A DNA stretch of 64,000 nt from an uncultured Parcubacteria group bacterium (GCA_947084965.1 CAMTUG010000004.1:23490-87489); one strand, 5' to 3'. Positions 2,615-34,113 are shown, counted from the stretch's first letter. The notes: generated by a model from the letters alone, not told the origin. Numbers and translations are program-made.

Positions 2615-2615
2615 T

Positions 2616-5379: not shown

Positions 5380-5847
5380 ATGCGCGATGCTGTGCTCGTC
5401 TTTCTTCTGCGGCGACGGTCCGTGGCGCTTGGGCGAAAGCTCAAATACATCGTGGCCGGATACCGCACCAGCGCCGGCGGAAAAATCGAACCGGGCGAAA
5501 CACCCGAACAGGCCGCCAAACGTGAAACGAGTGAGGAGGCCGGCGCTGAAACGCACCTTCTGCTGTACCGCGGGGTGGTCGAGATCGAGAACATCGATCA
5601 CTCGGACTGGAACTGTCGCCTGCACCTCTACATCTGCCGCGAATTCGATGGTGAGCCGACGAACAGCGATGAGATCATCGACTGGCAGTGGTACGACATT
5701 GACAACCTGCCATGGGGCGAGATCCGTCCTTCGGACCGCACCTGGCTCGAGGCGATCCTCGTCCACGACGAGATCGTCGCGTTGCGCTGCGTAGTACAGA
5801 ACAATCAGCTCGTGAGCTGTCAGATCCTCGACGGCCCACTTCCATGA
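5380..5847 (+). CDS. NUDIX hydrolase
   Basis: Nudix box GGKIEPGETPEQAAKRETSEEAG; about 65% GC; GGAGG RBS. Confidence 0.75.
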   Translation: MRDAVLVFLLRRRSVALGRKLKYIVAGYRTSAGGKIEPGETPEQAAKRETSEEAGAETHLLLYRGVVEIENIDHSDWNCRLHLYICREFDGEPTNSDEIIDWQWYDIDNLPWGEIRPSDRTWLEAILVHDEIVALRCVVQNNQLVSCQILDGPLP

Positions 5848-6295
5848 GCTCACCCTTCAAGCGCCGGCGCGGCCACTCCCCGCCGGCTTTGAAATTTTTG
5901 ACCGTTTGGTTCTCCTCGGAACAGAAAAATCTCCAACGTATGTTGAAGATTTTTCTGGTGAACCGAAAGCTAGCTTAACCGAATACTTGGAGAAAAATAA
6001 GGAAAAGCTCGTATTACTTCAGTTTAATTACTCTTTGGCGTAAACGTAGTTTTGAAAAGAAACAGCGCACCCACGGAAGTCGGCGGGCACTCACGTGGGT
6101 GGTGAGCTGTCTCCGCCGCGCGTAGGTGCGCGAGCTAGTATTCGTTGGTAGTGGCTCTCCTGCACGGAACCATCGCCCTTCCGACGAAACAGAGAGTGTC
6201 TTCGTACACCACCTCCTGGATTGGTGGCGATGTCTTGATGCGCTCATCTTCAGCCGTGAGGCCGAGCCAGAGCAGGATGATGACGACGAGCTCCA

Positions 6296-6457
6296 TCACG
6301 TCACCATCTTGGAAGTGGCCGAGACGGCCAGCGCTCGATCGAGGAAGACGACCATGAGCGCGAACAGGATCATGGCCGCCAGGTACTCGATAGGGGTGGA
6401 CGCGTCCTGGGGGGAGATGAGCTTCTCCCAGTACGCGCTGAGCGTGTGAAGCATCAT
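6296..6457 (-). CDS. small single-TM membrane protein (53 aa), translationally coupled to the upstream lipoprotein
   Basis: TGATGATG stop/start overlap; AAGGAGG inside the 3' end of the upstream gene; hydrophobic helix IEYLAAMILFALMVVFL. Confidence 0.4.
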   Translation of the reverse strand: MMLHTLSAYWEKLISPQDASTPIEYLAAMILFALMVVFLDRALAVSATSKMVT

Positions 6458-6918
6458 CACTTCACCTCCTTGTCGATCGGGTAGTGGATGATCAGGGCGT
6501 GCCTGGAGTCGGTCGTGGCCAGGAGGTAGTCGCCCGTCGCGTCCACGACCCACTGCGGGTCGGTGACGTGCGAGCGCTGCCAGGTGCCTCGCTCGAAGCG
6601 AAGCTCCTGTCCCACGTGCATGATCTTGACCCGCCCGTCGGACTCGACCTTCCAGTGTGCGTCTGTCCTGGACATCAGGTTGCATGGCTCGGCGTCGTCA
6701 CACCACTGCCGAAGTTCGACATCGCACGGAGCTCCGTCGACGAGCACTTGATGGACAGGGATGTAGGCCTTGGGCTCGTCGGATCCCGTGCAGCCATTGA
6801 GCAGGCCGATGATGGCGCCTCCCGTCGGCAGGATGACGGCCAGGACGAGCAGACCTCCGCCAAAGAAGTGCTTGGCTACTTCACCCCAGTACTCGATTTC
6901 CCACATGATCCTTTCCAT
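6457..6918 (-). CDS. hypothetical lipoprotein
   Basis: Signal peptide with lipobox LLNGC after an internal Met (MERIMWEI...); high GC; start uncertain. Confidence 0.45.
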   Translation of the reverse strand: MERIMWEIEYWGEVAKHFFGGGLLVLAVILPTGGAIIGLLNGCTGSDEPKAYIPVHQVLVDGAPCDVELRQWCDDAEPCNLMSRTDAHWKVESDGRVKIMHVGQELRFERGTWQRSHVTDPQWVVDATGDYLLATTDSRHALIIHYPIDKEVK

Positions 6919-7085
6919 GCTTGCTCCCAGCGAAGATTTCGCTAGAGGGTCGGCTATCCCAGCCGTAGGGTTCGCTCCGAGGGAGACGACAAAGTAAGAT
7001 AACAACAGCGAAGCGTTTTGTCCAGCGTTTTACTGGATTCTTTTGAAGAAATGCTGGATAATGTGAGTAATTTTATCTTAGCAAC

Positions 7086-7862
7086 ATGAAACTCGGGGAA
7101 AAAACACAAATTACCCTTTTGATCGTCGGCTTCGTGGCATTTTTAGCTGTTGTCGTGTGTTTGTTGGCAAATGGCACCCAGCTTTCAGAGGGATTCAGAG
7201 AATCATTGATCGTTGAGTTGATCGGGGCGGGATTTGTGACTCTCTTCGTTTCTCTTGCGATGGCCTTGATCCAGCACCTTTTTGCGGCGAATGTAGAGAA
7301 GATTAGAGCAAAAAGAGAATCTCTAGCATGGATAGAAGAGATCATGGAGCCAGAATTCAAATCCGAATTTGAAAAGGGTGCCACGCCTTGGAACATGCAC
7401 GAGCGAGAGGATGCGGCGTTTTATTTTCACGACTCGCCCATTAACCGCATATACGACCTCATAATGCGACACCATGAAAACATCGTGAAGTGTGCGGGTC
7501 CAAGTGACTCCATGTTTTTGGCGCGTCTTTTGGAGATCAAACGGATTGTTGAAGCAGGTCGTAGTGTTGGCAGTAAAATTGATCTCGATTTGCGAAACAG
7601 AGTACGTTCGTTTAACAAAAATAGAAATGCAAATTCCGCAAATGACGGGTCGTTGTTTGTATACGCAAGAGCAAAGATTTTTTCCAATCTGACCGAAGCG
7701 AAGATTTTGGAGTATGTCGAATATGGCAATGACCAAATCCGCACGGAGTTTATGAAGACGCTGGACGATAACACGACCAACACCTGGCGTGAGAAAATTG
7801 GAATCTACACCGCCTCTCTCAAAGGCGCGCTATACAAAATGGGTTACCGAGCTGACAAGTAA
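7086..7862 (+). CDS. hypothetical two-TM membrane protein with a cytoplasmic domain
   Basis: Two N-terminal TM helices; AT-rich; first gene of the AT-rich island. Confidence 0.5.
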   Translation: MKLGEKTQITLLIVGFVAFLAVVVCLLANGTQLSEGFRESLIVELIGAGFVTLFVSLAMALIQHLFAANVEKIRAKRESLAWIEEIMEPEFKSEFEKGATPWNMHEREDAAFYFHDSPINRIYDLIMRHHENIVKCAGPSDSMFLARLLEIKRIVEAGRSVGSKIDLDLRNRVRSFNKNRNANSANDGSLFVYARAKIFSNLTEAKILEYVEYGNDQIRTEFMKTLDDNTTNTWREKIGIYTASLKGALYKMGYRADK

Positions 7863-7877
7863 ATTAATGTTGATTTT

Positions 7878-8747
7878 TTATTGTCTCTCAATATTTTTTC
7901 TTTCGTGTTCATCGATAGCAAGATAGATCGCGTCAACCGTAATAATTTTCGCCAATCCTAGATGCCCTTCGATCTTTGCCAAATCACCCTGACTCAACCC
8001 AGCGTTCTCGTCCTTTTCTCTATGCAAAAATTTAGTAACGATTCCAAGTAAGTAAGCCTTCTTGATGGGTTTTGTGCCTTCGATATGCATGAACTGTGGT
8101 TTGCAAAAAACTGGTCCACCGCTATTGCCTGGAAAAACTGGAGCATCCAAGTAAATGATGTTTTGTTTTAGGGATTCTGAATCAAGACGAGCTATCAGGC
8201 CACCTCGGCAAATAGCATAATTCTTTACTTCACCACGTAGTCCTAACGGGAACCCCAGGAAGAATACTTCATCACCCGAACAGAGGCCGACCTCTTCGTA
8301 ATCTTGGGAGCGAAGCGCCGTTTCAGTATCAATAATTTCGACGAAATCTATTCCGTTGTCACGCAATACCCTCGTCTGTATCGGGATAACAGCAACATCG
8401 ATTTCATTCGAAGGAAAACTGAAGTTTGCACCATTAGCCCCCGTGTAGAGAGGCAATTGAAAACTTTGAGTCGTTTCTTCCCCGAGCCGATCAAAACGTA
8501 AGAAAATCTCTTTTTTCTGGGAGGATTGATCGATGCCATTTTTGTAAATGACATGTTTTGCGGTCACAAGGTAGGATTTCACCTCAAATCTTGTATCGTC
8601 GATTTTTTCGATGACCTTACTGAAAAGAAAGCCTGTCCCAATCGGCTGAAGTACGCCAAAGGCATCGGGGTAGTCAATTGAAACCACGCACTTTAGGTAT
8701 CCAGGAGGAAGTAGCGCCATATAATAGACAACCCCAACATTTTGCAA
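7878..8747 (-). CDS. trypsin-like (chymotrypsin-fold) serine peptidase
   Basis: Catalytic triad context TAKHV (His), DVAVIP (Asp), GNSGGPVF (Ser). Confidence 0.7.
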   Translation of the reverse strand: MQNVGVVYYMALLPPGYLKCVVSIDYPDAFGVLQPIGTGFLFSKVIEKIDDTRFEVKSYLVTAKHVIYKNGIDQSSQKKEIFLRFDRLGEETTQSFQLPLYTGANGANFSFPSNEIDVAVIPIQTRVLRDNGIDFVEIIDTETALRSQDYEEVGLCSGDEVFFLGFPLGLRGEVKNYAICRGGLIARLDSESLKQNIIYLDAPVFPGNSGGPVFCKPQFMHIEGTKPIKKAYLLGIVTKFLHREKDENAGLSQGDLAKIEGHLGLAKIITVDAIYLAIDEHERKNIERQ

Positions 8748-8774
8748 TAAAATTCAACAATAATCAACACTTGT

Positions 8775-10037
8775 ATGCGTTTTCCAACAGAAGCCTCCCT
8801 CAGCGATTTGAGTCTCGATAAATTTGGGCATCGAGAACTGGCCAAAAACCTTGTAGCAAATGTTTTTTTGGAGATGGAGCTTCCGAACACCTTTGGCATA
8901 TACGGAAATTGGGGAACGGGAAAATCAACCTTCTTGCAGGCAGTCCAAGGGGAACTTACAAACAATGCAGATGCAAGAGACATACTTGCTATCAGATTTG
9001 ATCCGTGGAAATACGAGTACGCTGATCATATTGATCTGTTTACAGCTTTGATAAGTGATTTCAGAGAGCAGGCTAAAATTCCAAAAACAAATGAGGTTTG
9101 GAATGATCTCACAAGCGCAATGCTTGGCATATCAACTTCTATCTTCAAAAAACTGCTCCATAAAGCAAGTGCAGGGATGCTTGATGTGGATGACATGCGC
9201 GCCGAGGCTAATCTGGCCGCTACGGCATTTCCCGAGGATCAATTTGAACAAGCCGATCTGGTTCAACAACTGCGTGGAAAGCTCAACAATCTCATACAGG
9301 TTGCTCTTACGGAGAACACGAAAAAGCGCGTTTGCATCTTCATCGATGATCTTGACCGATGCTCCCCAGAGCATACAGTTACACTTTTGGAAGCGATAAA
9401 AAACTTTCTACTTACCAGCAACGTACTATTCGTTTTTGCACTGGACCGTCGCATCGTTTCTGAGATGATCGAGAAAAAATATGGTCTGCACTCTGGCTAT
9501 GGGGACGAATATCTAACAAAAATTATTCAGTACTCGCTCACACTTCCCGCGCCAACTCATGAAGGTATTTTGAGCGATATCCTTGCTGATCACCTCATTG
9601 AAATGCCGAAGGACACACAGGGTTGGATTATCAGATTTACCAATAGATTCGCGAATGAAACACGAAAATTCAAACAATTGGTTTACCAGTTAATTACGCA
9701 AGCAAAATTGGGAGGCATTGATCTTTCAAAAGACGCTCCGCTTGATACTACAAGTCTATTCTGTGCTATTTATTTGAAGTCTCGTTTTCCAAAACTTTTT
9801 CATGTCAGTCGAAAAGCGGCTCTTGAAAACATTAAAACCTATGGTTCTATGATTTCGGCTGAAACTGATAATAAGCCAGAAAAAGCTCGTGACTTCGCAA
9901 GTCAGTTGGGCATATCGGGGGAAGAGAGAAAAATATTGACTGAATTGTTTATTTTCCAAATGCCAAACAACAAAGGGCTCATGAACGAGAATCGTCATAA
10001 GCTCGAGGAAGCAGGTTTTTCGAGAATGATCGATTAG
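8775..10037 (+). CDS. KAP-family P-loop NTPase
   Basis: KAP-type Walker A GIYGNWGTGKST (GxWGxGKS) and Walker B FIDDLDRC. Confidence 0.75.
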   Translation: MRFPTEASLSDLSLDKFGHRELAKNLVANVFLEMELPNTFGIYGNWGTGKSTFLQAVQGELTNNADARDILAIRFDPWKYEYADHIDLFTALISDFREQAKIPKTNEVWNDLTSAMLGISTSIFKKLLHKASAGMLDVDDMRAEANLAATAFPEDQFEQADLVQQLRGKLNNLIQVALTENTKKRVCIFIDDLDRCSPEHTVTLLEAIKNFLLTSNVLFVFALDRRIVSEMIEKKYGLHSGYGDEYLTKIIQYSLTLPAPTHEGILSDILADHLIEMPKDTQGWIIRFTNRFANETRKFKQLVYQLITQAKLGGIDLSKDAPLDTTSLFCAIYLKSRFPKLFHVSRKAALENIKTYGSMISAETDNKPEKARDFASQLGISGEERKILTELFIFQMPNNKGLMNENRHKLEEAGFSRMID

Positions 10038-10237
10038 TCCTCAGGGCAAATCTTCGCACACCTGTCCGTCGGTGCAGTATTTGAGCTTTGGGAGCTCGTA
10101 TCAGCCTCAGTTACTGCCTCCTGTGGCGCGCCAGAATCTCCTGTGACATGGTCGCAGGCTCCATTCGCCCATAACCCTCGCTTTGCGCTTTCGGCGTCAA
10201 ATTGGGACGTTTCTTAGTCCTGGGGATGTACATAGCA

Positions 10238-10489
10238 CTATGTCTTCATCGCACTGTAAATTGCGTCGCGTAGTTTCTCTTTATCACCGAGCTTTACAGG
10301 GATCTTATGTTTCTCGCCTCCGCTCGTTTCGATAACAACCTGGGCGTGGAGTGGAACGCCAAGTTCGATACTGGAGATGCGATGAATTGGAATAGATTTT
10401 TCTATGAAGAAAACCTTGTAGGAAACATGGGTGGAAAAAACCGTTGTCTTCGTCCCAAGGTAATTCGTTTCAAATAGCGCTTCAGCCAT
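10238..10489 (-). CDS. hypothetical protein (83 aa)
   Basis: ORF only, AT-rich. Confidence 0.3.
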   Translation of the reverse strand: MAEALFETNYLGTKTTVFSTHVSYKVFFIEKSIPIHRISSIELGVPLHAQVVIETSGGEKHKIPVKLGDKEKLRDAIYSAMKT

Positions 10490-10813
10490 ATGTGTTGTTG
10501 TGGTTTTGAATTAGGGCTGGATTTTGAGCAACGCAAAAGGTCGCCCGAGCCAGCGACGATTCTCTTTCGAAAACCGCCTCACGTCCTTTCGGAGCGTGAA
10601 CCACAACAACGAGGGCTGGTCAGACGACCAACAACGTTGTTGTGGATTTATTAGAGCCATGCCCATCATTATCTGATGGGTTTAGGCAATTGTGCTTGTA
10701 TTTTAACGTAAGGCACTGAAAAAGCAAACGCTATAGGCTGAATAAAGCCAAAAAATCTAGCATAAATTGCTTAATAGTGGCAGAATCAATAGGAAAAAGA
10801 ATGAAGAATAAGT

Positions 10814-11491
10814 ATGAAGGATGAGGACTTAGATTTGTCGGCAAAAGCAATAGAGCTTAATCGGCAGCAGTTTGTAGGCACCATTTGTCATTTCGAGGGT
10901 GAAAAAATCGCCCAGTGGCTTCGTGTTAAAAAGTTGGGGATCCCGCAAGAAGGTTTTGTTGATCAACACGCTGAAAACCGTTGGTTGAATCCAGTAGACC
11001 AGAATGTAGAAGAGGTAATGAGGAGACATCATCTTGTTGGGCGCGCTATCAAGGTATTGTTGGGTATTTTCAAACTCACAGATAATTACAGTGGAGCCGT
11101 ACGACATTTCCTACTCCAAAACAAAGTCGGACATATTCCAGGGAATTTTTCCATCGAGTACACGCCCGATAACGGTAAGATTAAAACCGAGTATCATGAC
11201 CTGCCAAAGACAGGAGAGAAGACGCTTGAAAACAAATTACGAGTTGAGGTTTTCAAACATCTGAAACCGAAGACTGTCGCTCGAAGAACAAGAAAAACTG
11301 CAGAGCGGGATAGCCGTGTTACCAGCCTCACGAAGACAAAAAAGAAAGGAACGCAGGTGGAAAGGGATTTTGGCATTGTGGCGGAACTGTATCCCGTGGG
11401 AACAGTGGACGATTTTTCAAAAAAAGCTGATACGAAGCGTGTACAGTTGATAAAAAAAGCCCGTGAAAGAGATAAAAAACGTTACAGTTAA
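10814..11491 (+). CDS. hypothetical protein with a Lys-rich C-terminus
   Basis: ORF followed by an intrinsic terminator. Confidence 0.4.
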   Translation: MKDEDLDLSAKAIELNRQQFVGTICHFEGEKIAQWLRVKKLGIPQEGFVDQHAENRWLNPVDQNVEEVMRRHHLVGRAIKVLLGIFKLTDNYSGAVRHFLLQNKVGHIPGNFSIEYTPDNGKIKTEYHDLPKTGEKTLENKLRVEVFKHLKPKTVARRTRKTAERDSRVTSLTKTKKKGTQVERDFGIVAELYPVGTVDDFSKKADTKRVQLIKKARERDKKRYS

Positions 11492-11525
11492 TTTTCAAAA
11501 TTAGTGTCACCATTCAAGGAGCGCA

Positions 11526-11552
11526 AAGGGGTACCGTCGAGGTACCTTTTAT
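11526..11552 (+). terminator. rho-independent terminator
   Basis: GGTACCgtcgaGGTACC hairpin followed by TTTT. Confidence 0.55.
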
Positions 11553-11929
11553 GTTTGCGCCCGACGCCTCACAACAAACCTCCGAAGATCAGGTCGTCGA
11601 AGCATTCGCTGAGATGTTGTATATGGCTGCGCGTCAGGAGGTAAAAAATAAGTATGAACACAATCCACAATCAGTTTCCGACAAGTAATTTCTACCTTGC
11701 CGCCTATCTGCTTTCGCACGAGATCAATATGATCAACTGCGAACGTGAACATGGCGGAAAGGTTACTTTTGTTTTTTCAGATTCTGAAAATCTACGCAAC
11801 CGCGTGACTGAATTTACATTCGAACGAAATGCGCTCGTGAGTGCATCCTCCTTTGTGAATTCGATCAAGAAGTTGAAATCCCTTTTGTACGACGGGATTT
11901 GATGACAATCAAAGTATAAGAATAACCAT

Positions 11930-12538
11930 ATGGCGGAACGCCGAATGATACGCAAAGATCTTTGTGAGAATGATGCTTTCAATGATCTCACGATGCCCGC
12001 ACAAATTCTCTACATGATGCTGATTCTCCACGGCGATGATGAGGGTTGTTTCAGGGCGGATGCAAAGTACTGGAGTAGAACCGTTTTTTACACAAAGCGC
12101 CAGGGTCCATTTCGTGTAGAGCGAATGCTTGATGAACTGCGAGAAGCGAGACTAATCATCACGGGCGAAACAAAAAATGGTCCCGCTGGCTTCATTCTTG
12201 GGTGGTTTAACATGCAAACTCTCACCGCAAGCAAGAGTAAACCTAGCCAATTTTATGAACTTTTGGTTGCCCATGGAATAACTCCATGTTGGGGAATTCC
12301 TGCAGAAGAGAATGTAAGGAAAGAAAAGCAAAGTGAAGTGAATGAAGGTGGGGTGAGGTCGAATTCGCCAAGTCGTTTTCGAGAAGTTGCAGGTAAACAC
12401 AGGGACGAAAAAATCGCTAGATTACAGGCGGAAAAGAAAGCTGTAATGGAGGGAATGTCTATGGGGGCTATTTCAACTCCTAATGATTTCGATGAAATTA
12501 GCGAATATGCCGAAAATGACGTGCGAGAAGATACCTAA
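11930..12538 (+). CDS. hypothetical protein (202 aa), mobile-element-associated
   Basis: ORF with an AGGAGG-like RBS. Confidence 0.4.
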   Translation: MAERRMIRKDLCENDAFNDLTMPAQILYMMLILHGDDEGCFRADAKYWSRTVFYTKRQGPFRVERMLDELREARLIITGETKNGPAGFILGWFNMQTLTASKSKPSQFYELLVAHGITPCWGIPAEENVRKEKQSEVNEGGVRSNSPSRFREVAGKHRDEKIARLQAEKKAVMEGMSMGAISTPNDFDEISEYAENDVREDT

Positions 12539-13001
12539 GGTTAGCACGCGGTACTTCCGACCGCGCATGAGAGGATCGATTCTCACGGATCAACGCCTTG
12601 CTTCTTTTACTCTAACATCAACGCCCTGCTATTTCGGAGGGCAACGGTATTGGTTCATTTGTACGGCGGATAAAGATGGAGAACCGTGTGGAAAGAGGGC
12701 TGGCGTCTTGTACTTAATAAACGACATATTCGCTTGCCGCCGATGCCACGATTTGGCATACGAGAGCCAGCAAAGGAATCACGTCGGCAGAAGAGCATTT
12801 TGTCGTAAGTATCGAGAAGGAGAAAAAAACATGGAACGATCTTTTATGGAGATGCGAATAAAACAATGGCGAGGGAACCCAACGAAGCGCTATCAGAAAT
12901 GGCTCATGCTCAGCGAGCGGCGCACACGCGATGCATCACGATTTCTGCTTGCAGAAATGTTAGTCATCGGATTCATTAAAAGTCGTCGTAAATCTCGCTG
13001 A
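12483..13001 (+). CDS. hypothetical Cys-rich (zinc-finger-like) protein
   Basis: CxxC motifs (CTADKDGEPCGKR...CRRCHD); start uncertain. Confidence 0.35.
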   Translation: MISMKLANMPKMTCEKIPKVSTRYFRPRMRGSILTDQRLASFTLTSTPCYFGGQRYWFICTADKDGEPCGKRAGVLYLINDIFACRRCHDLAYESQQRNHVGRRAFCRKYREGEKNMERSFMEMRIKQWRGNPTKRYQKWLMLSERRTRDASRFLLAEMLVIGFIKSRRKSR

Positions 13002-13052
13002 AGTATGCAGGAACTTTTCATTTCTCCAGTTGCACGACATAATTCAAATGAT

Positions 13053-14645
13053 ATGGACAAAAAAGCACTTCTCTATCTTCGCGTTTCAACGGACAAACAG
13101 GCCGAAAAAGGTTTCAGCCTGCCAGCTCAAGAAGAGGCGTGTCGTACCTACGCAAAAACGCATGGTTTTTCTGTTGAACATGTTTACCGTGATGAGGGAG
13201 AATCTGCGCGCTCCGACGATCGGCCTCAACTGCAAGAGATGCTCGCTCGTTGCGACGAAGGTGACATTGCCGCGGTTATCGTCTACAAGCTCGATCGCTT
13301 TGCGCGCAACGTTTTCGATCACGTGCGGAATGCCGCTCGCATACGCATGAAGAAGGCCGAACTCCATTCTGTTACAGAAAATATAAGCGGTACACCCGAA
13401 GGAATGATGGTAGAAGCCATCCTTGCTAGCGTAGCGCAATTTTTTAGCGGTAACCTTGCCCGTGATGTACTCAAGGGCATGAACGAGCGAGCCAAACAGG
13501 GCATGTGCAACTCCAAGGCTCCGCCTGGCTACAAAAACATGCGGGAGATCATTAACGAAGATGTTGAGAGAAAATTCGTGATTCCTGACTCCAAAACTAA
13601 GGATTATGTGATTCAGGCGTTTGAAAAGTTCGCGACGGGCGGTTATACGGTGGCCGATCTTTGCGATTGGTTCTTTTCCGTTGGAATGGAGCAAAAAAAG
13701 AACAAAGGCAAGCCTCTCGCTATTTCAATGGTGAGTCGAATGTTGAGCAACAAATTCTACATCGGCATCACGCAATGGAATGGCATTGAGGCGGAAGGAG
13801 TACACGAGCCCATTATTTCCAAAGAACTATTCCAGCGTGTCCAACTTGTACTCAGCGACCGTATCCACGGAAGAAGCAGGAAGCGTAAAAACCTTTTCTT
13901 ATTACGCGGGCTCATGCAATGCGGCGAGTGCGGTGCAAACATCACTTATGAAAAGCAACTCACTTCATCGAAGCGGTTGATACCGTATTACCGTTGTTCA
14001 AAAAGGCAAGATAACCGAAAAGTCGATTGCACCCAATCATACGTAGACGCTAATTTTTTGGAGAAAGAAATTGCAAAAGCCGTAGAAGCCGCTCGTCTCC
14101 CCCGACACATTATTGTAAAAATCGAAAAGAAGCTCGCAGAGATTCACGAGCGGGAACAGGAGTCGGTTACTAGGGAGCGTAAGCAGATTCAAGCAAAAAT
14201 GAATCAGCTCAACGAAAAGGAACGTTCGCTGGTGAACAAGTATCTCGAAAATAAGCTGACCGAGGAAATCTACGAAACGATCCGAGAAGAAATCTCTTCA
14301 GAACGCATAAACTGCAAGGCAAGGCTCGAAGCAAACGAAAGCACGATCCAGGCGGCGATCCGCATCCTGGAACAAGCGGTTACCTTCACGCGCGACCTCC
14401 CAGTCGCCTATAAGCGCGCGCCAGACCCAATCAAGCGACGATTCCTGGCCATTCTCTTCAAAGAGATTGTGGTGAAGGATGGTGGCTTGTATAAGGTTGT
14501 ATTGAATGAGCCGCTCGACTATCTCTGCAAAGAGTTTGCCCAAAATAAAAACCTCCCCGTCAAATTCGACGGAGAAGCTTTTGGTGACCCCAAGGAGAAT
14601 CGAACTCCTATTTGGTGGATGAGAACCACCTGTCCTAACCGTTAG
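13053..14645 (+). CDS. large serine recombinase (integrase)
   Basis: Resolvase N-domain LYLRVSTDKQ with catalytic Ser, recombinase domain, zinc ribbon CGECG; 3' end overlaps the tRNA-Glu. Confidence 0.85.
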   Translation: MDKKALLYLRVSTDKQAEKGFSLPAQEEACRTYAKTHGFSVEHVYRDEGESARSDDRPQLQEMLARCDEGDIAAVIVYKLDRFARNVFDHVRNAARIRMKKAELHSVTENISGTPEGMMVEAILASVAQFFSGNLARDVLKGMNERAKQGMCNSKAPPGYKNMREIINEDVERKFVIPDSKTKDYVIQAFEKFATGGYTVADLCDWFFSVGMEQKKNKGKPLAISMVSRMLSNKFYIGITQWNGIEAEGVHEPIISKELFQRVQLVLSDRIHGRSRKRKNLFLLRGLMQCGECGANITYEKQLTSSKRLIPYYRCSKRQDNRKVDCTQSYVDANFLEKEIAKAVEAARLPRHIIVKIEKKLAEIHEREQESVTRERKQIQAKMNQLNEKERSLVNKYLENKLTEEIYETIREEISSERINCKARLEANESTIQAAIRILEQAVTFTRDLPVAYKRAPDPIKRRFLAILFKEIVVKDGGLYKVVLNEPLDYLCKEFAQNKNLPVKFDGEAFGDPKENRTPIWWMRTTCPNR

Positions 14646-14776: not shown

Positions 14777-14810
14777 TTCCTCTCCCCTTCCGGGAGAAAA
14801 GAGAGGCCCC

Positions 14811-17068: not shown

Positions 17069-17143
17069 AATGAAAAATTATAGCCCGTTGCGGCCCAAAA
17101 TGCGAACGCGCCCTGGGAGTGACCCAAGGCGCGGGCGGGCGGA

Positions 17144-27150: not shown

Positions 27151-27225
27151 TGGTCGGGCCGACCGGGATTGAACCGGCGACCTCTTGGACCCCATCCAAG
27201 CGCGCTCCCACTGCGCCACGGCCCG
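27151..27225 (-). tRNA. tRNA-Pro (anticodon GGG)
   Basis: Hand-folded cloverleaf: acceptor CGGGCCG/CGGCCCG, anticodon loop ATGGGGT, T-loop TTCAATC, CCA encoded. Confidence 0.7.
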
Positions 27226-27436: not shown

Positions 27437-27512
<76 letters not shown>

Positions 27513-27613
27513 GAAAAATACTCCACTTCGCGTGGAGTATTTTTCTGTGCTGCAAGGGATTTGAATCGAGTCTTCATCTTCGCCTGACTTTCAGCTATAG
27601 TGTCGTTGCTATG

Positions 27614-27796
27614 CTACGTATTCTCGTTTCAATTCTGCTTGCGGCGACCGTCGCAACGGCCAGCTGGTTTTCTCTTCAAGATGAGCACGAAGACGCTCCG
27701 GTCGCGCCCGTTACAGCGTTGACTACTGAGGCATACGAAACGATCCAAGCAGAACTCCTTTCTGTGTTGCAGAGCAAGGTCCTGCCGCCGCAATGA
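27614..27796 (+). CDS. small ORF encoding a signal peptide (60 aa), possibly the frameshifted N-terminus of the next gene
   Basis: MLRILVSILLAATVATASWF signal-like sequence; ATGA overlap with the next ORF. Confidence 0.3.
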   Translation, partial: LRILVSILLAATVATASWFSLQDEHEDAPVAPVTALTTEAYETIQAELLSVLQSKVLPPQ

Positions 27797-28623
27797 CGGC
27801 ACTGCAGACAAAAAGCGCAGCTGATCCTTCTGTCTTGCGCGACTGTCATCCGCTCGTTCATGCCATCGGGTTTGCGGCGTTCAACCAACTGAACTCGGTC
27901 AGCGAGGCGATGATCGACGGCGCGGACTGGTGCACCAGCGGCTATTATCACGGGGTCTTTGAAGGGGCATTCACTCAGACAGATGATCCGATCGCTCTGA
28001 TGCAAACGGTCTGCGTCAGTCAACCTGATCACACCTTTCGCGATTGGCAGTGCCACCACGGAATCGGCCATGGACTGATGTTCTATTATGAAAACGATCT
28101 GCCGGCCGCAACGGATGCCTGCCATCGCTTTCCTGATTCTTTTCAATCGGAAGCCTGTATCAACGGAATGTTCATGGAAAATTTCGTCGCCGACGGTATC
28201 GTCCACAAAGCGCCCTACCGCCAGGCAGAGAACCCCCTCTACCCTTGCGCTGAGCAAGCTGAAGCAGATCAAGCGCATTGCTACGCAACGGCAGCCCACT
28301 ATTTCCTGACGTTATACCCCAACGCCTATGCGGATGGGTTCAAATGGTGTAAAGAAGCAGGGACTCAGGAAGCGAACTGTGTCCGCGGGATCGCTTCCCG
28401 GGCGATGCGCGACCAGTTGGCACACCCCGAAGTGGTGGAAGCGCTCTGCCGCCAAGCGGGCGACTTTGAACCGTGGTGCATCATCGGCATGACCTCGGTT
28501 TACCTTTCGCACATCGGCAACAGTTCGACCGGCGACGCCTTCTGTGCCTCCTTGTCGCTCTCCCATCAAGTCCCTTGCCTCCTTGAATTAGAAGACTTCC
28601 GAACAACCTATGAATCAATATAA
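27793..28623 (+). CDS. hypothetical Cys-rich protein (22 Cys), probably secreted
   Basis: No signal peptide of its own, many paired Cys residues. Confidence 0.45.
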   Translation: MTALQTKSAADPSVLRDCHPLVHAIGFAAFNQLNSVSEAMIDGADWCTSGYYHGVFEGAFTQTDDPIALMQTVCVSQPDHTFRDWQCHHGIGHGLMFYYENDLPAATDACHRFPDSFQSEACINGMFMENFVADGIVHKAPYRQAENPLYPCAEQAEADQAHCYATAAHYFLTLYPNAYADGFKWCKEAGTQEANCVRGIASRAMRDQLAHPEVVEALCRQAGDFEPWCIIGMTSVYLSHIGNSSTGDAFCASLSLSHQVPCLLELEDFRTTYESI

Positions 28624-29398
28624 ACGTATGACTCCAGGAAAAAGACGGCCAGTAAAAACAACGTCCTGGGGGCGCGTGGCTAAATGGTATGAAGGGGTCG
28701 TTGGTGACCCAGACTCTTTTCAGCAAAAAGTCATTTTGCCAAACTTAGTGCGTTTGATGGATATCAAAGCAGGCGAGTCAGTCCTCGACATCGCTTGCGG
28801 CACAGGATTGTTCGCCAAGGTGTTTCATAACGCCGGAGCGATCGTCACGGGCACGGACATTTCACCAGAATTGATTGAGATCGCCCGCAAGGATGCTCCG
28901 GAAACGCTGACGCTCAAAGTCGCGGCCGCGGAAAGTCAGCCATTTGTAAAATCCGCCAGCATCCACAAAGCAACGATCATTCTCGCTTTACAAAATATCG
29001 ACAAATTCGGTGCGGTGCTTAAAGAAACAGCGCGCGTGCTGAAAAAAGGTGGCAAAGTTTTTATTGTCATGAATCATCCGGCGTTCCGCGTGATTCAAGG
29101 AAGCTCCTGGGGTTGGGAAGGAACCGAGGTGCAATATCGCCGCATCGACAAGTATCTGACGCCGTTTAACGTGCAGATCGACATGCACCCGGGGATCGCC
29201 CCGCGCGAAGTGACGACCACGTTTCATCGCCCTCTTCAGGCCTACATCAAAGCACTGGCCGCCGCAGGGTTGCCCGTAACCGACTTCGAGGAATGGATTT
29301 CGCACAAAAAGAGTGATAGCGGCCCGCGCGCTCCTGCCGAAAACGTCGCTCGCAACGAAATCCCGATGTTCCTTTGTCTCGTCGCGACAAAACTGTGA
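28610..29398 (+). CDS. class I SAM-dependent methyltransferase
   Basis: Motif I VLDIACGTGLF. Confidence 0.7.
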   Translation: MNQYKRMTPGKRRPVKTTSWGRVAKWYEGVVGDPDSFQQKVILPNLVRLMDIKAGESVLDIACGTGLFAKVFHNAGAIVTGTDISPELIEIARKDAPETLTLKVAAAESQPFVKSASIHKATIILALQNIDKFGAVLKETARVLKKGGKVFIVMNHPAFRVIQGSSWGWEGTEVQYRRIDKYLTPFNVQIDMHPGIAPREVTTTFHRPLQAYIKALAAAGLPVTDFEEWISHKKSDSGPRAPAENVARNEIPMFLCLVATKL

Positions 29399-30072
29399 AG
29401 ATTCATCGATTTATCACCGACGCCAACCTTGACGACGACGCCGTGATGCTGACCGGCGATCTTTTTCATCAGATCAAAAACGTTTTGAAGTTGAAGATCA
29501 ACGAAACGATCGATCTTTCAGACGGCCACGGAATAGCTCGGCGCGGAACGATCACGACGATCACCAAGACCTCGGTCGACGTGCACCTTCACGAAACGCT
29601 ATCTGCGCTCGAAAGCACGAAGCGTGTTGTGTTGTACTGCGCCATATTGAAACGTGAAAACTTCGAGTTGGTGGTGCAAAAGGCGACCGAGATTGGGGCG
29701 AGCGAAATCGTGCCCGTGCACACCGAACGGACAGTCAAACTTGGTATCAAGATGGATCGCTTACAAAAAATCGCTCTCGAAGCGGCGGAGCAATCTGGCC
29801 GCAGTGTTGTACCGACGATTCACGAGCCGATGAAGTTTGCTGATGCTCTCGATGACGCGAAACGAAACGACACGAACACCATCTTGCACATGGATGGCAA
29901 GGATTTGCCACAAACAAAAACATCGATCGGACTTTTTATCGGTCCTGAGGGCGGCTGGTCGAAAAACGAGCTCACTCTCGCCGCATCCGCCGGACTTGTA
30001 GCCACTTCGCTCGGCCCACGACCACTCCGCGCCGAAACGGCAGCGATCATCGCTACTTATCTTAATGTGTAA
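29374..30072 (+). CDS. rsmE: 16S rRNA (uracil1498-N3)-methyltransferase
   Basis: RsmE-like PUA plus SPOUT layout; C-terminus LGPRPLRAETAAI. Confidence 0.65.
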   Translation: MSRRDKTVKIHRFITDANLDDDAVMLTGDLFHQIKNVLKLKINETIDLSDGHGIARRGTITTITKTSVDVHLHETLSALESTKRVVLYCAILKRENFELVVQKATEIGASEIVPVHTERTVKLGIKMDRLQKIALEAAEQSGRSVVPTIHEPMKFADALDDAKRNDTNTILHMDGKDLPQTKTSIGLFIGPEGGWSKNELTLAASAGLVATSLGPRPLRAETAAIIATYLNV

Positions 30073-30111
30073 AATGCGCTATACTTAGCGCGTTGACCTT
30101 TTGAAATTTCT

Positions 30112-31836
30112 ATGCGCAAACATCTTTTTTGGTTCGGTGCGATCGTTGTTCTGATCCTCGCCGCGGTCGCCATTTTCTACCGCGACCGTATTCCTACCGT
30201 CGTGATCCCAGGAACAAACGATGAGGACTCGTTTGCCGATACGATCATTGAAGGATTCACCCTGACAACCTTTGCCGATGACCTCGGCGGGGCGCGCGAT
30301 ATGATTCGCGACGATGTCGGGAATATTCTTGTGAGTATTCCGTCGGAAGGATCGGTAAAATCCGTGTCCCCAGACGGCTCTGTGCGCACGCTGTTGCGCG
30401 GTCTCAATAAACCACACGGACTGGCGATGCGCTGCGTCGAAGGATGCACGCTGTACGTCGCCGAAACGGACGCGATCGTTGCCTATACATTTGAAAACGG
30501 CGAAGTGACGTCCGAAGCGACAACACTCGTCGATCTCCCCGGCGGCGGATTTCACTCCACCCGCTCGCTCACCTTCCTCCCCTCCCCGGACGATAACGTT
30601 CTCCTCGTCTCGATCGGCTCGTCCTGCAATGCCTGCGACGAATCAGACGATCGCCGCGCAACGATCATGGCGTTTGAAGTCGAAGACAAAGATGAGCCGT
30701 ACTTACAGCCATTTGCCACCGGTTTGCGCAACAGCGTCTTTATGGCGCTTCATCCAGCGACGGGCGACGTATGGGCAACGGAAATGGGCCGCGACTTCCT
30801 CGGCGATGATCTCCCACCAGATGAAATCAATATCATCCGCGAAGGGGGTGACTACGGCTGGCCGATCTGCTACGGACAGAATATCAACGATCGTGACGTT
30901 GATAAGAACGTCTACATCCAAGATCCGTGTAACGACAAGATTGCCGCACACATCGATCTCCCTGCTCACGTCGCTCCTCTTGGAATCGCCTTCATTCCAG
31001 AAGAAGGTTGGCCAGAAGAATGGTGGTACGACGCGGTCGTCAGCTATCACGGGTCATGGAATAGCTCGACGCCCGTCGGCTACAAAGTGGTGCGCATTCC
31101 GCTCGACGCCGAAGGAAATCAAACCGGACCGATCGTCGACCTCTTCACCGGCTTTTTGGATGAAGAAGGTGAAGCGATCGGACGGCCAGTCGATCTGCTG
31201 ATTGAACCGGGCGGAACGATCTATATCTCCGACGACAAAGCTGGCAAGATTTACAAAGCGGTGGCCCAGCAAGAAGAATCAACAACGTATAACGATCTGA
31301 TCCGTGTCACAAATCTTTCGGAAGGCGACACGATTAAAAGTCCGCTGACGCTTTCGGGCGAAGCGCGCGGCAACTGGTACTTTGAAGCGAGTTTTCCGAT
31401 TCGACTGTACGACGCCGATGGAAATGAATTGGCCGTGGCGGTCGCCCAGGCCCAAGGGGATTGGATGACGACCGAATACGTTCCGTTTAAAACAACACTC
31501 ACCTTTGATCCTCCATCGACACCAACGGGGACGATCGTTCTACAAAAAGATAATCCTTCTGGATTACCGGAATATGATGACGCCTTCCGCATCAACGTGC
31601 AGTTTGGCCCATCTGCCGACGGACGTGCGGACTGTAAACCAACCGGATGTAGTTCTCAGGTGTGCTCGGACGAAGATAGGGTCACAACCTGCGAGTATCG
31701 AGCTGAATATGCCTGTTACCAGTCAGCAACGTGCGAACGGCAATCCAATGGCGAATGCGGATGGACAACCACGACGAAACTGTTGACCTGTCTTGAAGAA
31801 GCGGCGCTCTCTACCCCAGAAGAGATTATCTATTAA
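30112..31836 (+). CDS. PQQ-dependent sugar dehydrogenase-like beta-propeller fused to a Gmad2-like Ig domain and a Cys-rich tail
   Basis: YliI-type beta-propeller motifs (GLRNSV...GDYGWP), then a Gmad2-like segment. Confidence 0.6.
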   Translation: MRKHLFWFGAIVVLILAAVAIFYRDRIPTVVIPGTNDEDSFADTIIEGFTLTTFADDLGGARDMIRDDVGNILVSIPSEGSVKSVSPDGSVRTLLRGLNKPHGLAMRCVEGCTLYVAETDAIVAYTFENGEVTSEATTLVDLPGGGFHSTRSLTFLPSPDDNVLLVSIGSSCNACDESDDRRATIMAFEVEDKDEPYLQPFATGLRNSVFMALHPATGDVWATEMGRDFLGDDLPPDEINIIREGGDYGWPICYGQNINDRDVDKNVYIQDPCNDKIAAHIDLPAHVAPLGIAFIPEEGWPEEWWYDAVVSYHGSWNSSTPVGYKVVRIPLDAEGNQTGPIVDLFTGFLDEEGEAIGRPVDLLIEPGGTIYISDDKAGKIYKAVAQQEESTTYNDLIRVTNLSEGDTIKSPLTLSGEARGNWYFEASFPIRLYDADGNELAVAVAQAQGDWMTTEYVPFKTTLTFDPPSTPTGTIVLQKDNPSGLPEYDDAFRINVQFGPSADGRADCKPTGCSSQVCSDEDRVTTCEYRAEYACYQSATCERQSNGECGWTTTTKLLTCLEEAALSTPEEIIY

Positions 31837-31837
31837 T

Positions 31838-32161
31838 ATGGACTTGCTTCAAAAGAAATGTGCGGCTTGTGAGGGCGGGACCCCGCCGCTCACAGCAGAC
31901 CAGATCGCCACGTTCAAGGCAGAATTAAAAACCCCTTGGGACGTCGTAGACGAAAAACATCTTCGACGATCGTTCACCTTTGCGGATTTCAAGGAGGCGA
32001 TGGAGTTTGTAAACAAGGTCGCCGAGGTCGCTGAGTCGGAAGGTCACCACCCAGATATCAGCATTCACTGGAACAAGGTCGACATTGATCTGTGGACCCA
32101 TGCGATCGGCGGACTCTCAGAAAACGACTTTATCCTCGCGGCAAAAATCGAGGTTCTGTAA
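31838..32161 (+). CDS. 4a-hydroxytetrahydrobiopterin dehydratase (PCD/DCoH)
   Basis: Motif EGHHPDI; start taken at the internal Met. Confidence 0.7.
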   Translation: MDLLQKKCAACEGGTPPLTADQIATFKAELKTPWDVVDEKHLRRSFTFADFKEAMEFVNKVAEVAESEGHHPDISIHWNKVDIDLWTHAIGGLSENDFILAAKIEVL

Positions 32162-32175
32162 TCCAAAAACAACAA

Positions 32176-32210
32176 GAGACTCGGCCCTTGATCGCCGGGC
32201 CTCTTTTTGT
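32176..32210 (+). terminator. rho-independent terminator
   Basis: GGCCC...GGGCC stem followed by CTCTTTTTGTT. Confidence 0.45.
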
Positions 32211-32246
32211 TAAGGTCCGGTCGGACCATCAACCCCGGAGAGTCCC

Positions 32247-34046
32247 ATGACCCGCACCGTCCCGACCCGCACCGTCCCGACCCGTCCCGATCCCCACTCG
32301 TACCGTGACAACACCCAGCCGACCATGAAGCACATCGAAGTCGAGATCGAACCTGACTTCGACCAGCGCATCATCTACGGCGTCGTCGAGATCGTCTTCG
32401 ATCGCGGCGGTACCGTTGACCTCGACACCCGTGACCTGACGATCACGCGCGTCGTCAACGCCGACTTCCAGTCGCTCCCCTTCGAGCTCGCCGAGCCGGA
32501 CCCGCTGCTCGGCACCCGACTGACCTTCGTCGTTCCGGACGACGAGCCGGTGGTCATCATCGAGTACAAGACCGCCCCGACCGCCAGCGGCCTGCAGTGG
32601 CTCACCCCGGAACAGACCGCGGGCAAGCGGCACCCCTTCCTCTACAGCCAGGGGGAGTGCATCCACACCCGGAGCTACATCCCTTGCCAGGACACCCCCG
32701 GCGTGCGGGTCACGTTCCAGGGCAGGATCATCGTGCCGTCGGAACTGCGAGGACTGATGGCCGCAACCTTCGTCGAGCGCCGCAAGGATGGTGACGGAGT
32801 CTCCGACACCTGGAAGATGACGAAGCCGATCCCGCCCTACCTGATCGCCTTCGCTGTCGGCGACGTCGTCTCACACGCCCTCACGCCTCGCATCCGCGTC
32901 TGGGCCGAACGCCCGGTGATCGAAGCCGCGGCGCGCGAGTTCGAGGCCCTGTCGACGATCATGGACAAGGCCGAGGAGCTCTTCGGTCCCTACCCCTGGG
33001 ACCGCTACGACCTCCTCATCATGCCCCCCTCCTTCCCGTTCGGCGGGATGGAGAACCAGGGGCTGACCTTCCTCAGCCCGTCGGTTCTCGCCGGAGATGG
33101 CTCGATGCTCTCCGTGGTCGCCCACGAGCTGGCCCACTCCTGGACCGGCAACCTGGTGACCAACGCGACCTGGGACCACTTCTGGCTGAACGAGGGCTGG
33201 ACGACCTGGGCCGAGGGACGGATCGGCGAGCTCGCCTTCGGCGTCTCGGTCGCGGACCTCAACCGCGCGATCATGGGTACCGACCTCCGGCGCGACATCG
33301 AGCGGTTCATGAAGACCGGCCGACCGGATCTCACTCGCCTCGCCTGGAACCTCGGTGGCACTGACCCGGACGACGCCTTCAGCCGCGTCCCCTACAGCAA
33401 GGGCGCCCAGTTCCTGACGGCGCTCGAGACCCACGTCGGCCGCGACGCCTTCGATGCGTTCACCATGCACTACATCCAGGAATTCGCCTTCCAGAGCATC
33501 ACGACCGAGGAGTTCCTCCACTTCCTCGAAGCACACCTGCCGGGCGCGTTCGCGGCGATCGATGGCGATACCTGGATCCACGGCACCGGAATGCCGAGCA
33601 CCGCCGTGCCGATCTCCTCCCCGCTCATCGACGAGGTCACGCAGTTCGCCGTCCAGGGGCAGCTCCCGTCGCTCGCGCAGGCCGCGGACTGGCACGCGCT
33701 GCAGTGGGCGATCTACCTCGAGCGCCTTCCGCGGACGATCATGCACGATCGCATCCACGACCTCCAGCGCCTCCTGCACCTCGAGGAGCACGGCAACATG
33801 GACATCCGCTTCAACCTGGCGCTCCTGTACGCCGAGGCAGGCTACTACGACGGACTCCAGTTCGTCGAGTCGGTCCTCGCGGGCACCGGTCGCACCCGCT
33901 ACCTCCTCCCGATCTACAAGGCGCTGGCGCAGAAGGGCGGCGTCTTCGGAGAGTTCGCCCGCCGCGTCTTCGCCGAGCAGAGCGCGAGCTACCACGCGAT
34001 CGCTCAGAAGGGGGTCGAACGGACCTTCGTCGAAGCAGCCACGTAG
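32247..34046 (+). CDS. M1-family zinc aminopeptidase (LTA4 hydrolase-like)
   Basis: HELAHSWTGN...NEGWTTW (HExxH-x18-E), GGMEN motif; about 66% GC; the 5' end carries a 15-nt tandem duplication. Confidence 0.8.
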   Translation: MTRTVPTRTVPTRPDPHSYRDNTQPTMKHIEVEIEPDFDQRIIYGVVEIVFDRGGTVDLDTRDLTITRVVNADFQSLPFELAEPDPLLGTRLTFVVPDDEPVVIIEYKTAPTASGLQWLTPEQTAGKRHPFLYSQGECIHTRSYIPCQDTPGVRVTFQGRIIVPSELRGLMAATFVERRKDGDGVSDTWKMTKPIPPYLIAFAVGDVVSHALTPRIRVWAERPVIEAAAREFEALSTIMDKAEELFGPYPWDRYDLLIMPPSFPFGGMENQGLTFLSPSVLAGDGSMLSVVAHELAHSWTGNLVTNATWDHFWLNEGWTTWAEGRIGELAFGVSVADLNRAIMGTDLRRDIERFMKTGRPDLTRLAWNLGGTDPDDAFSRVPYSKGAQFLTALETHVGRDAFDAFTMHYIQEFAFQSITTEEFLHFLEAHLPGAFAAIDGDTWIHGTGMPSTAVPISSPLIDEVTQFAVQGQLPSLAQAADWHALQWAIYLERLPRTIMHDRIHDLQRLLHLEEHGNMDIRFNLALLYAEAGYYDGLQFVESVLAGTGRTRYLLPIYKALAQKGGVFGEFARRVFAEQSASYHAIAQKGVERTFVEAAT

Positions 34047-34113
34047 TTCAACCGGACCCTGACTCTCACACACGAACAGCCCCGGTCGGATCACTTCCGG
34101 CCGGGCGCTCGTT

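Follow-up and report, generated by a model that had tools for sequence, protein, structure and literature searches.

Five GC3-rich genes and their NCACT-loop hairpins in a 64-kb window from a probable Patescibacteria genome

A 64,000-nucleotide stretch of DNA from an uncultured Parcubacteria group bacterium (GCA_947084965.1, CAMTUG010000004.1:23490-87489; the whole stretch is called the window here) carries scattered genes that are far richer than their neighbours in G+C at third codon positions (GC3). Five of these genes are each followed by a GC-rich hairpin with an NCACT loop, and these genes and hairpins are the subject of this report. Overall, the window is 53.1% GC, or 53.0% when the GC-rich islands are left out. 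A preliminary description of the window had reported four blocks of about 62–66% GC; a sliding-window GC profile recovers four GC-rich stretches at those places, along with one stretch of 44.7% GC at 7.0–14.6 kb, and the coding sequences of the blocks are 60.0–68.3% GC. Third codon positions account for most of the excess, with a GC3 of 0.74–0.91 in the GC-rich genes against a median of 0.61 (range 0.50–0.68) in 39 background genes. The PGA_cap gene (16094–16963) has an ordinary GC content of 51.8%, even though it lies between two GC-rich units.

The first block opens with a NUDIX hydrolase gene (5380–5847, + strand; GC 60.0%, GC3 0.74; Pfam NUDIX, E = 1.2e-17), whose Shine–Dalgarno (SD) sequence AAGGAGG is followed by TCCC and then ATG. 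It is completed by a two-gene lipoprotein operon on the minus strand (6296–7005; GC 61%), in which a lipoprotein-like open reading frame (ORF; 6457–7005, GC3 0.78) and a 53-residue membrane ORF (6296–6457, GC3 0.89; SD AGGAGGTGA) meet in a TGATG stop/start overlap. Neither Pfam nor NCBIfam gave a match for this operon. The second block (14811–16020) consists of two convergent genes with one hairpin each. One is an ORFan gene encoding 229 residues with a hydrophobic N-terminus (14811–15500, +; GC 68.3%, GC3 0.89), called identically in an independent assembly and preceded by a promoter-like site, TTGACA-17-TATCTT (14748–14776, +), that was picked up by consensus scan only. The other is a stand-alone response-regulator receiver gene of 131 residues (15625–16020, −; GC 62.6%, GC3 0.82; Pfam Response_reg). 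The third block is a gene for an acidic lipoprotein of 494 residues with the lipobox LAGC and weak CotH-like similarity (17144–18628, −; GC 63.7%, GC3 0.88). The fourth is an M1 aminopeptidase gene of the leukotriene-A4-hydrolase type (32247–34046, +; GC 66.8%, GC3 0.91; Pfam Peptidase_M1, Peptidase_M1_N and Leuk-A4-hydro_C). A word search among 5.8 billion proteins returned only the query itself for the 229- and 494-residue proteins; exhaustive phmmer searching found 59 distant relatives of the latter, the best at 37% identity.

The GC3-rich genes share one codon table. TAC reaches 100%, CAG 98%, ATC 96% and TTC 93%, CTC is chosen over CTG, and GTC, GCC, ACC and CGC complete the set. Clear SD sites precede the NUDIX, ORFan, receiver, 494-residue lipoprotein and M1 genes, three of them with a common YCCC spacer, and most neighbouring genes have no obvious SD site. 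Of the five hairpin-closed units, four also start behind an intergenic region of their own; the receiver gene instead comes after PGA_cap, with both on one strand. The encoded proteins are host-like in composition: the ratio of residues G, A, R and P to F, Y, M, I, N and K (GARP/FYMINK) is 1.2–1.9 for the units other than M1, compared with 0.8–2.0 in the background. The window holds three tRNA genes, Glu(CUC) at 14582–14656, Pro(GGG) at 27151–27225 and Pro(CGG) at 27437–27512, all of which read G- or C-ending codons. Codons of this type are the ones enriched in the GC3-rich genes (GAG 0.75 versus 0.39; CCC 0.25 versus 0.08).

The flanking genes place the host within Patescibacteria (the candidate phyla radiation, CPR), a probable rather than proven assignment. 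A scan of species-representative genomes for BtuR, encoded next to M1, returned eight loci, seven of which are unnamed or labelled Patescibacteria or Candidatus Uhrbacteria, at 54–71% identity. The closest locus, L004, is 80% identical in BtuR and collinear with the window over ~20 kb. This metagenome-assembled contig (CAZPQJ010000007.1) is labelled ‘uncultured Gammaproteobacteria’, yet it is closest to the Patescibacteria-labelled loci, and the label is probably wrong. The type IV pilus genes and general gene content of the window fit a CPR genome.

Hairpins with a stem of ~10 GC-rich base pairs and a five-nucleotide loop follow the GC3-rich genes. The four that had been reported are present where they were placed, each with a YCACT loop. 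Behind the NUDIX gene, hp1 (GCCGGCGCGG-CCACT-CCCCGCCGGC; 5863–5887, +) begins 15 nt past the stop codon, scores 48.4 bits against a covariance model of the family, and folds at −22 kcal/mol. The ORFan gene is followed after 30 nt by hp2 (CCCCGCTGGA-TCACT-TCCAGCGGGG; 15531–15555, +; 52.5 bits; −26.5 kcal/mol, z = −6.6). Absent from the preliminary description was hp6 (CGACCGCGAGGG-ACACT-CCCTCGTGGTCG; 15575–15603, −; 47.9 bits), 21 nt past the receiver stop. hp6 and hp2 converge across a palindromic spacer, GTTTAAAAC, between the two convergent genes. The 494-residue lipoprotein gene is followed after 10 nt by hp3 (CGCGCCTTGGG-TCACT-CCCAGGGCGCG; 17107–17133, −; 46.5 bits; −32.1 kcal/mol), and a promoter-like site for PGA_cap comes directly after it (17106..17077, −). 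Finally, hp4 (CCCGGTCGGA-TCACT-TCCGGCCGGG; 34081–34105, +; 46.8 bits; −27.7 kcal/mol, z = −6.8) begins 34 nt past the M1 stop, and 8 nt separate it from the stop codon of BtuR (34114–34701, −), which converges on M1; it appears placed to terminate both genes. The earlier proposal that every cassette ends in such a hairpin thus holds for five GC3-rich genes once hp6 is added, and fails for the lipoprotein operon, whose terminator at ~6050–6110 (−) is a different hairpin outside the NCACT family.

These resemblances hold in formal alignment. When the five hairpins are anchored on their loops, C14, A15, C16 and T17 are invariant, as are G11 and C19/C20 among the closing pairs and the stem pair C4–G26, and a TTT run is common to all five tails. 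Seven of the ten stem pairs show compensatory changes on both sides, and 98% of alignment cells are paired, compared with 42–58% in slid controls. A covariance model built from all five scores the members at 46–52 bits, and the next match on either strand of the window reaches 13.7 bits. When only hp1, hp3 and hp6 are used, the omitted hp2 (37.9 bits) and hp4 (27.8 bits) are the best non-training matches, with E-values of 4e-7 and 1e-4; the next match has 15 bits and E = 0.17. From these scores and the recovery of left-out members, we conclude that the family is real. The window contains exactly five members. All lie 10–34 nt behind the coding sequence of a GC3-rich gene, and not one of ~40 ordinary genes is followed by such a hairpin. 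Another hairpin at 57749–57774, with a TCACTT loop, was considered and rejected, as it does not align to the family and scores 7.7–9.1 bits. The apices of hp4 and hp2 are identical at 11 of 11 positions. This shared apex, GGAUCACUUCC (15538–15548 and 34088–34098), is one base off the E. coli 16S rRNA 3′ end, GGAUCACCUCC, a resemblance seen post hoc; the remaining three apices read CACUCC. GGAUCACCUCC is the anti-SD region of 16S rRNA as known from E. coli, and the host's own may differ.

Could the pattern be an artefact, produced by chimeric assembly of a high-GC organism or by unrelated hairpins that happen to look alike? The window does come from a metagenome-assembled genome, and the NUDIX gene has no record in independent assemblies, which leaves the junctions of the first block (5380–7005) outside any independent match. 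However, an independent Logan assembly (run ERR3478686) matches 14610–18852 at 99.98% and 27458–39056 at 100% identity, and so confirms the junctions of every block but the first. The same GC-rich M1 gene occupies the same neighbourhood in another sample, and the leave-out model recovers omitted members as described above. Chimerism, which had been named as a possible refutation, is accordingly unlikely for the units that these matches cover, and we regard the artefact explanation as a whole as exceedingly improbable.

One proposed feature of the element did not survive. A GTTTWAAAA motif shared downstream of two hairpins had been taken as part of it, and we reject this candidate. After hp4, GTTTTAAAAA is the BtuR stop codon (TTA, 34114–34116) together with the last codons of the convergent BtuR gene, and the AAAAATCGATTCC that follows this TTA encodes the BtuR C-terminus. 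The corresponding BtuR 3′ end in L004, TAAAAATCAATTCC, is homologous to the window's TAAAAATCGATTCC, although L004 has no M1 gene. After hp2, it is GTTTAAAAC, the spacer that hp2 and hp6 have in common.

Folded as RNA, the hairpins form stems of 10–13 bp at −22 to −32 kcal/mol, with z-scores from −2.6 to −6.8. The stem of hp1 extends to UUCAAG/CUUUGAA and is directly followed by AUUUUU, and the extended stem of hp4, which pairs GAAC with GUUU, runs into GUUUU. In hp2, hp3 and hp6, a UUU(U) run starts 5–7 nt after the core stem, and a terminator consensus scan called hp6 only. We read the five hairpins as putative Rho-independent terminators that may also give mRNAs stable 3′ ends. Like known intrinsic terminators, they combine a GC-rich stem-loop up to ~35 nt past the stop codon with strong folding energies and a U-run that the stem enters or that starts a few nucleotides behind it, and, like bidirectional ones, the hp2/hp6 pair and hp4 (M1/BtuR) lie between convergent genes. 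Unlike known intrinsic terminators, they have an invariant NCACU pentaloop with G/C closing pairs on covarying stems, they serve one compositional gene class only, and in three members the U-run begins 5–7 nt after the core stem. The low-GC native style of terminator is exemplified by a perfect 15-bp AT-rich hairpin, CAGAAAAATACTCCA-cttcgcg-TGGAGTATTTTTCTG (27511–27547), which starts in the last bases of tRNA-Pro(CGG).

Beyond the window, the family is hard to find. The covariance models detected no member in 128 kb from relatives. A strict pattern for the hp2/hp4 type, CCCCG.T.GGATCACTTCC.GC.GGG, in which the four degenerate positions were N for viral contigs or S/R codes for metagenome contigs, had 0 matches in either collection. 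With a loose pattern, matches numbered 8 in viral and at least 120 in metagenome contigs, most of them inside coding sequence and only ~10 of them terminator-like hairpins. These pattern searches offer no evidence of a widespread hairpin family or of a donor. Nor does the core behave as a DNA uptake sequence, for which a conserved 9–12-mer would be dense across the genome: within the window, GGATCACTTCC occurs exactly twice, or six times with one mismatch, and the other four sites are not hairpins. Repetitive extragenic palindromic (REP) elements and bacterial interspersed mosaic elements (BIMEs), which are associated with REP-associated tyrosine transposases (RAYTs), as well as the uptake-sequence inverted repeats that act as terminators in Neisseria, are also short GC-rich palindromes that recur downstream of genes. 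Their stems, however, are conserved, and they occur in many copies across the genome. In the present family it is the loop that is conserved, on stems that vary (seven of ten pairs covary), with five copies in 64 kb, all on GC3-rich genes. The five hairpins are not REP elements.

The M1 unit is the one whose history can be traced. Its nearest homolog, at 56% amino-acid identity, lies on L002, a contig from another sample that keeps the gene order UbiE – RsmE – Pterin-4a – M1 – BtuR – … – DMRL synthase – Y1 transposase. The L002 gene is 64.5% GC with a GC3 of 0.84, in a 53% GC background. In the window, the region upstream of M1 (32162–32246, +) contains, in order, the Pterin-4a terminator (GGCCC..GGGCC and, behind it, TCTTTTTG), the segment TTTTTGTTAAGGTC that L002 conserves as well, and the SD sequence GGAGAG with TCCC after it; TTTTTGYTAAGGTC is the stretch that the L002 upstream region has in common with the window. 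The base of the L002 M1 terminator is also the same, CCCCGGTC...GGCCGGGG, down to the T–G wobble. The window gene opens with a tandem 15-nt repeat, ACCCGCACCGTCCCG ×2 (32250–32285), which encodes TRTVP-TRTVP and is absent from the N-terminus of the L002 ortholog.

L004 lacks the whole M1 unit, and the stop codons of Pterin-4a and BtuR overlap there. By amino-acid identity, L002 and L004 resemble each other more than either resembles the window for RNR (85% versus 77%), UbiE (67% versus 51–53%), RsmE (64% versus 50–59%) and BtuR (81% versus 74–80%), which gives the tree (window,(L002,L004)) for these sequences. Since M1 is present in the window and L002 and absent from L004, this tree implies that it is ancestral and was lost in L004. 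Divergence at silent sites agrees with this age. Fourfold-site identity of M1 between the window and L002, counted at conserved residues, is 0.53 against 0.41 expected from composition, an excess of 0.12; flanking genes have 0.33–0.47 against 0.27–0.33 expected, an excess of 0.03–0.18. The silent sites of M1 are therefore about as diverged as those of its flanks, yet GC3 is 0.84–0.91 in both lineages compared with ~0.6 in the flanks. A gene about as diverged as its flanks that is still GC3-rich is unlike the fading relic of an old import, which should have relaxed.

Phylogeny points the same way. In a neighbour-joining tree, which is crude, the window M1 groups with L002, P0003 and P0038 inside a group holding Patescibacteria-, Uhrbacteria- and Magasanikbacteria-labelled sequences, and the Myxococcota homologs stand apart from that group. 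The preliminary description had proposed repeated acquisition from one high-GC donor clade, for example Actinobacteria, and had stated that this would fall if the best homologs lay in the lineage of the flanking genes. For M1, the only traceable unit, that is where they lie; the gene is old, syntenic in L002 and grouped with Patescibacteria, and no donor was found.

We sampled ten CPR-clade contexts of M1, comprising the window, L002 and eight further fetched loci. In six of them (the window, L002, L020, L144, L146 and L147), M1 is a GC3 outlier whose excess is limited to the coding sequence, in flanks that range from 35% to ~60% GC. For example, M1 has a GC3 of 0.85 in L020 (Magasanikbacteria), where the flanks have 0.64–0.70, and of 0.84 in L144, with flanks of 35–47% GC. 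In L146, it has 0.87 next to a gene of 0.51, and in L147, 0.82 between flanks of 0.45–0.60. The terminators and flanks of L144, L146 and L147 are AT-rich or ordinary, and the GC excess is therefore confined to the coding sequence. Two further contexts, L021 and L023 (M1 GC3 0.92–0.93), are uninformative, being high in GC throughout (65.6% and 63%). The M1 GARP/FYMINK ratio is 1.0–1.5 in five of the six outliers and 2.1 in L020, compared with 2.3–3.3 in Myxococcota homologs. It does not track GC3: L144 combines a ratio of 1.01 with a GC3 of 0.84, and L148 a ratio of 1.02 with a GC3 of 0.50. When a transferred gene ameliorates, its silent sites are expected to shift first. In M1, the slow sites are host-like and the fast sites are not, the opposite of what amelioration predicts.

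These data bear on the main rival explanation, that the units were acquired horizontally, several times over, from one high-GC donor lineage with its own terminator type and have not yet ameliorated. It contends with M1 that is ancestral to the window and L002, with fourfold divergence like that of its flanks and high GC3 in both, that groups with Patescibacteria rather than any foreign clade, and whose amino acids are host-like beside extreme synonymous sites. For the four untraceable units, the explanation still stands as the main rival. The units resemble one another, and differ from the host, in GC3, codon choice, SD style and terminator loop. Two of them are ORFans, units count as insertions or deletions when compared with L004, and a tRNA gene and an island with a recombinase are close by. 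High-GC CPR-like contigs that also prefer CTC over CTG do exist (L021 at 65.6%, L023 at 63%). As donors, however, these two contigs were rejected, because their Ala and Thr codon choice differs from that of the units, as do the signals flanking M1. The strict hairpin pattern has no match in viral or metagenome contigs, and homolog searches with M1 and the 229- and 494-residue proteins identified no donor for any unit. We consider recent single-donor import contradicted for M1, undocumented for the other units and, as an account of the whole set, doubtful, although it is far from negligible. Of the earlier idea that high GC and shared hairpins mark one set of imported cassettes, the set stands, with a genuine family found only at GC-rich 3′ ends and one codon signature; for M1, the recent import does not.

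Known acquired islets (‘class III’ genes) offer a useful comparison. Like them, the units have deviant GC and codons, include ORFans, differ in presence between relatives, and have a tRNA gene and a recombinase island nearby. Unlike them, the traceable unit is old, syntenic and grouped with the host phylum, its silent sites are extreme beside host-like amino acids, and every islet consists of one gene and its terminator. The composition and codons of the units deviate as those of genomic islands do, and yet the closest homologs of M1 are in no foreign lineage, and its absence from a relative is not coupled to a divergence younger than that of its flanks.

The island in question is the 44.7% GC stretch at 7006–14656, which looks like an integrated element beside a tRNA gene. 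It encodes a trypsin-like peptidase, a KAP-family NTPase, several ORFs without a family match and a large serine recombinase, whose ORF (13005–14645, +) overlaps tRNA-Glu(CTC) (14582–14656, −) by 64 nt. No att direct repeats were found for the island next to tRNA-Glu. Inside it, the Rfam LOOT RNA (RF03000) matches 10555–10688 (−) over the full model, at 65.4 bits against a gathering score of 46.4. To our knowledge, the LOOT motif is known only from unassigned marine metagenome sequences, and through this match it may gain a genomic host and a setting in a mobile element.

Around a Y1 (RAYT-type) transposase gene (35979–36548, −) are REP-like palindromes, GGCGGGGC-N6-GCCCCGCC (AGGCGGGGC-CACTGY-GCCCCGCCT), which are separate from the five hairpins although their loops also contain CACT; the window thus holds a true REP/RAYT pair as well. 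Sites occur at 35953–37034 and 62977–63000 in the window, at 10334–11501 in L002 and at 12844–12867 in L004. Two copies lie in frame inside the Y1 gene, where they encode RRGAVAPP and RRGDSAPPS within an insert, and this arrangement is conserved in L002. Between the window (35478–36548) and L002 (9856–10929), protein identity is 96% for DMRL synthase and 93% for the Y1 transposase, with a fourfold-site identity of 0.67–0.72, whereas the neighbouring genes are 48–78% identical. The high identity of this block points to recent exchange between the two lineages.

Such exchange, 1.4 kb away and at 93–96% identity, speaks for the idea that the units are often-recombining accessory genes in which GC-biased gene conversion, or another bias tied to recombination, raised silent-site GC while the hairpins, otherwise ordinary terminators, drifted GC-rich under it. 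The units are indeed accessory, and an excess confined to silent sites, with amino acids unaffected, would follow. The effect, however, is far larger than that reported for bacterial biased gene conversion. In addition, the bias stops exactly at coding-sequence borders and spares PGA_cap between two units, and it would leave an invariant loop on variable stems unexplained. We judge biased conversion quite unlikely as the cause.

A different possibility is a dedicated system that mobilises single-gene cassettes and recombines at or recognises the hairpin, much as integron attC sites or HUH/Y1 hairpins are used, with the GC-rich genes as cargo. Each unit is one ORF, or an ORF with a promoter, plus a 3′ hairpin, and a conserved loop on varying stems is what structure-recognised sites display. 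The insertions and deletions include the hairpin, the window carries a RAYT-type transposase gene whose REP hairpin loops also contain CACTG, and the window M1 hairpin shares its apex with hp2 (11/11) and not with its L002 ortholog. Integron cassettes resemble the units further in being mostly ORFan single genes with a 3′ imperfect palindrome and a composition unlike the host. Here, however, the hairpins measure 25–29 nt rather than the 55–140 nt of attC, RYYYAAC/GTTRRRY cores are missing, and there is no array and no intI; units have their own promoters and both orientations. On inspection of the flanks, made without an attC covariance model, neither GTTTAAA nor GTTAAGG, both close by, matches GTTRRRY. 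The units are dispersed over 5.4, 14.8–16.0, 17.1–18.6 and 32.2–34.1 kb on both strands, and the only recombinase among the scanned ORFs of 1–36 kb is the large serine recombinase, not an integron integrase. Units carry a single hairpin apiece, and neither a counterpart at the 5′ end nor a target duplication nor the scar of an empty site came to light. Furthermore, the locus of M1 has not changed since before the window and L002 diverged, and neither 128 kb from relatives nor the searched collections yielded further copies. A cassette system of this kind is, in our view, very unlikely.

The reading that we favour, at a little less than even confidence, is that the units form a maintained, codon-biased class of self-contained transcription units with a lineage-specific terminator motif rather than fresh high-GC imports. 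There would be five such units, each with strongly C- or G-ending codons and each closed by a GC-rich terminator. The GC excess would be a synonymous-site property of the coding region, kept over long times, and its likeliest cause would be selection on codon usage or mRNA properties, such as membership of an expression class. That the NCACU pentaloop is invariant, on a stem that is GG/CC-closed and otherwise variable, may mark a lineage-specific constraint. Most plausibly, a trans-acting factor recognises the loop, or a single terminator design is strongly selected. The shared codons, SD sites and hairpins fit a common source and a common selective regime alike. We prefer a common regime because M1 belongs to the set and its hairpin apex is that of hp2, which would extend the argument made for M1 to the other four units. 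The closest precedent is the ‘class II’ of highly expressed genes in E. coli and B. subtilis, which likewise have strong SD sites, uniform C-ending codons, strong terminators and a bias that persists in orthologs. The bias here is much larger, and the members, known from sequence alone, are an aminopeptidase, a NUDIX protein, a receiver and ORFan lipoproteins rather than translation machinery.

Several observations weigh against a maintained class. In two of the ten CPR contexts, M1 is no outlier, with a GC3 of 0.62 in L022 and 0.50 in L148 and similar flanks. The argument from persistence is shown for M1 only, a single unit. At least two units (M1 and the 17144–18628 gene) are insertions or deletions relative to L004, where MurE and PGA_cap are adjacent; in the window, the lipoprotein gene and two ordinary-GC ABC genes sit between them. 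Two units are ORFans (the 229- and, by word search, the 494-residue proteins), and on both counts the units look like accessory or acquired genes. They also cluster near the tRNA-Glu gene and the integrated low-GC element. With no ribosomal-protein or EF-Tu gene in the window, the preferred codons are uncalibrated, and the first codons of M1 have no AT-rich ramp. The GC3 shift, 0.25–0.3, is far above usual expression-linked codon bias. Moreover, the apex of the L002 M1 hairpin is AGCG-CAA-CGCT instead of the window's 11-nt GGA-TCACT-TCC. At another L002 locus (2205–3544), three GC3-rich ORFs (GC3 0.77–0.84) without a family match are closed by ordinary terminators of hairpin and T-run that have no NCACT loop. 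Given this different apex and these ordinary terminators, the NCACT loop is not needed for the GC3 state.

A bolder, and unlikely, proposal is that the NCACU hairpin is the recognition tag of an undescribed trans-acting system that defines and maintains a hyper-GC3 class of single genes in this Patescibacteria lineage. Candidates would include an RNA-binding terminator or stability factor and a hairpin-specific nuclease or recombinase. If this were true, M1 with a GC3 above 0.8 across CPR genomes of 45–65% GC would reflect a gene-specific process and not ancestry, and the rule that a GC outlier is a recent horizontal transfer would be broken.

Compositional outliers are routinely taken as recent transfers, yet M1 has kept a GC3 of 0.84–0.91 through a divergence comparable to that of its flanks. 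If a maintained class of this kind exists genome-wide, screens that infer transfer from GC or codon usage would misclassify it in reduced genomes. Terminators that form a family by their conserved loop and covarying stems, limited to one gene class, may also provide a handle on expression control in uncultured organisms.

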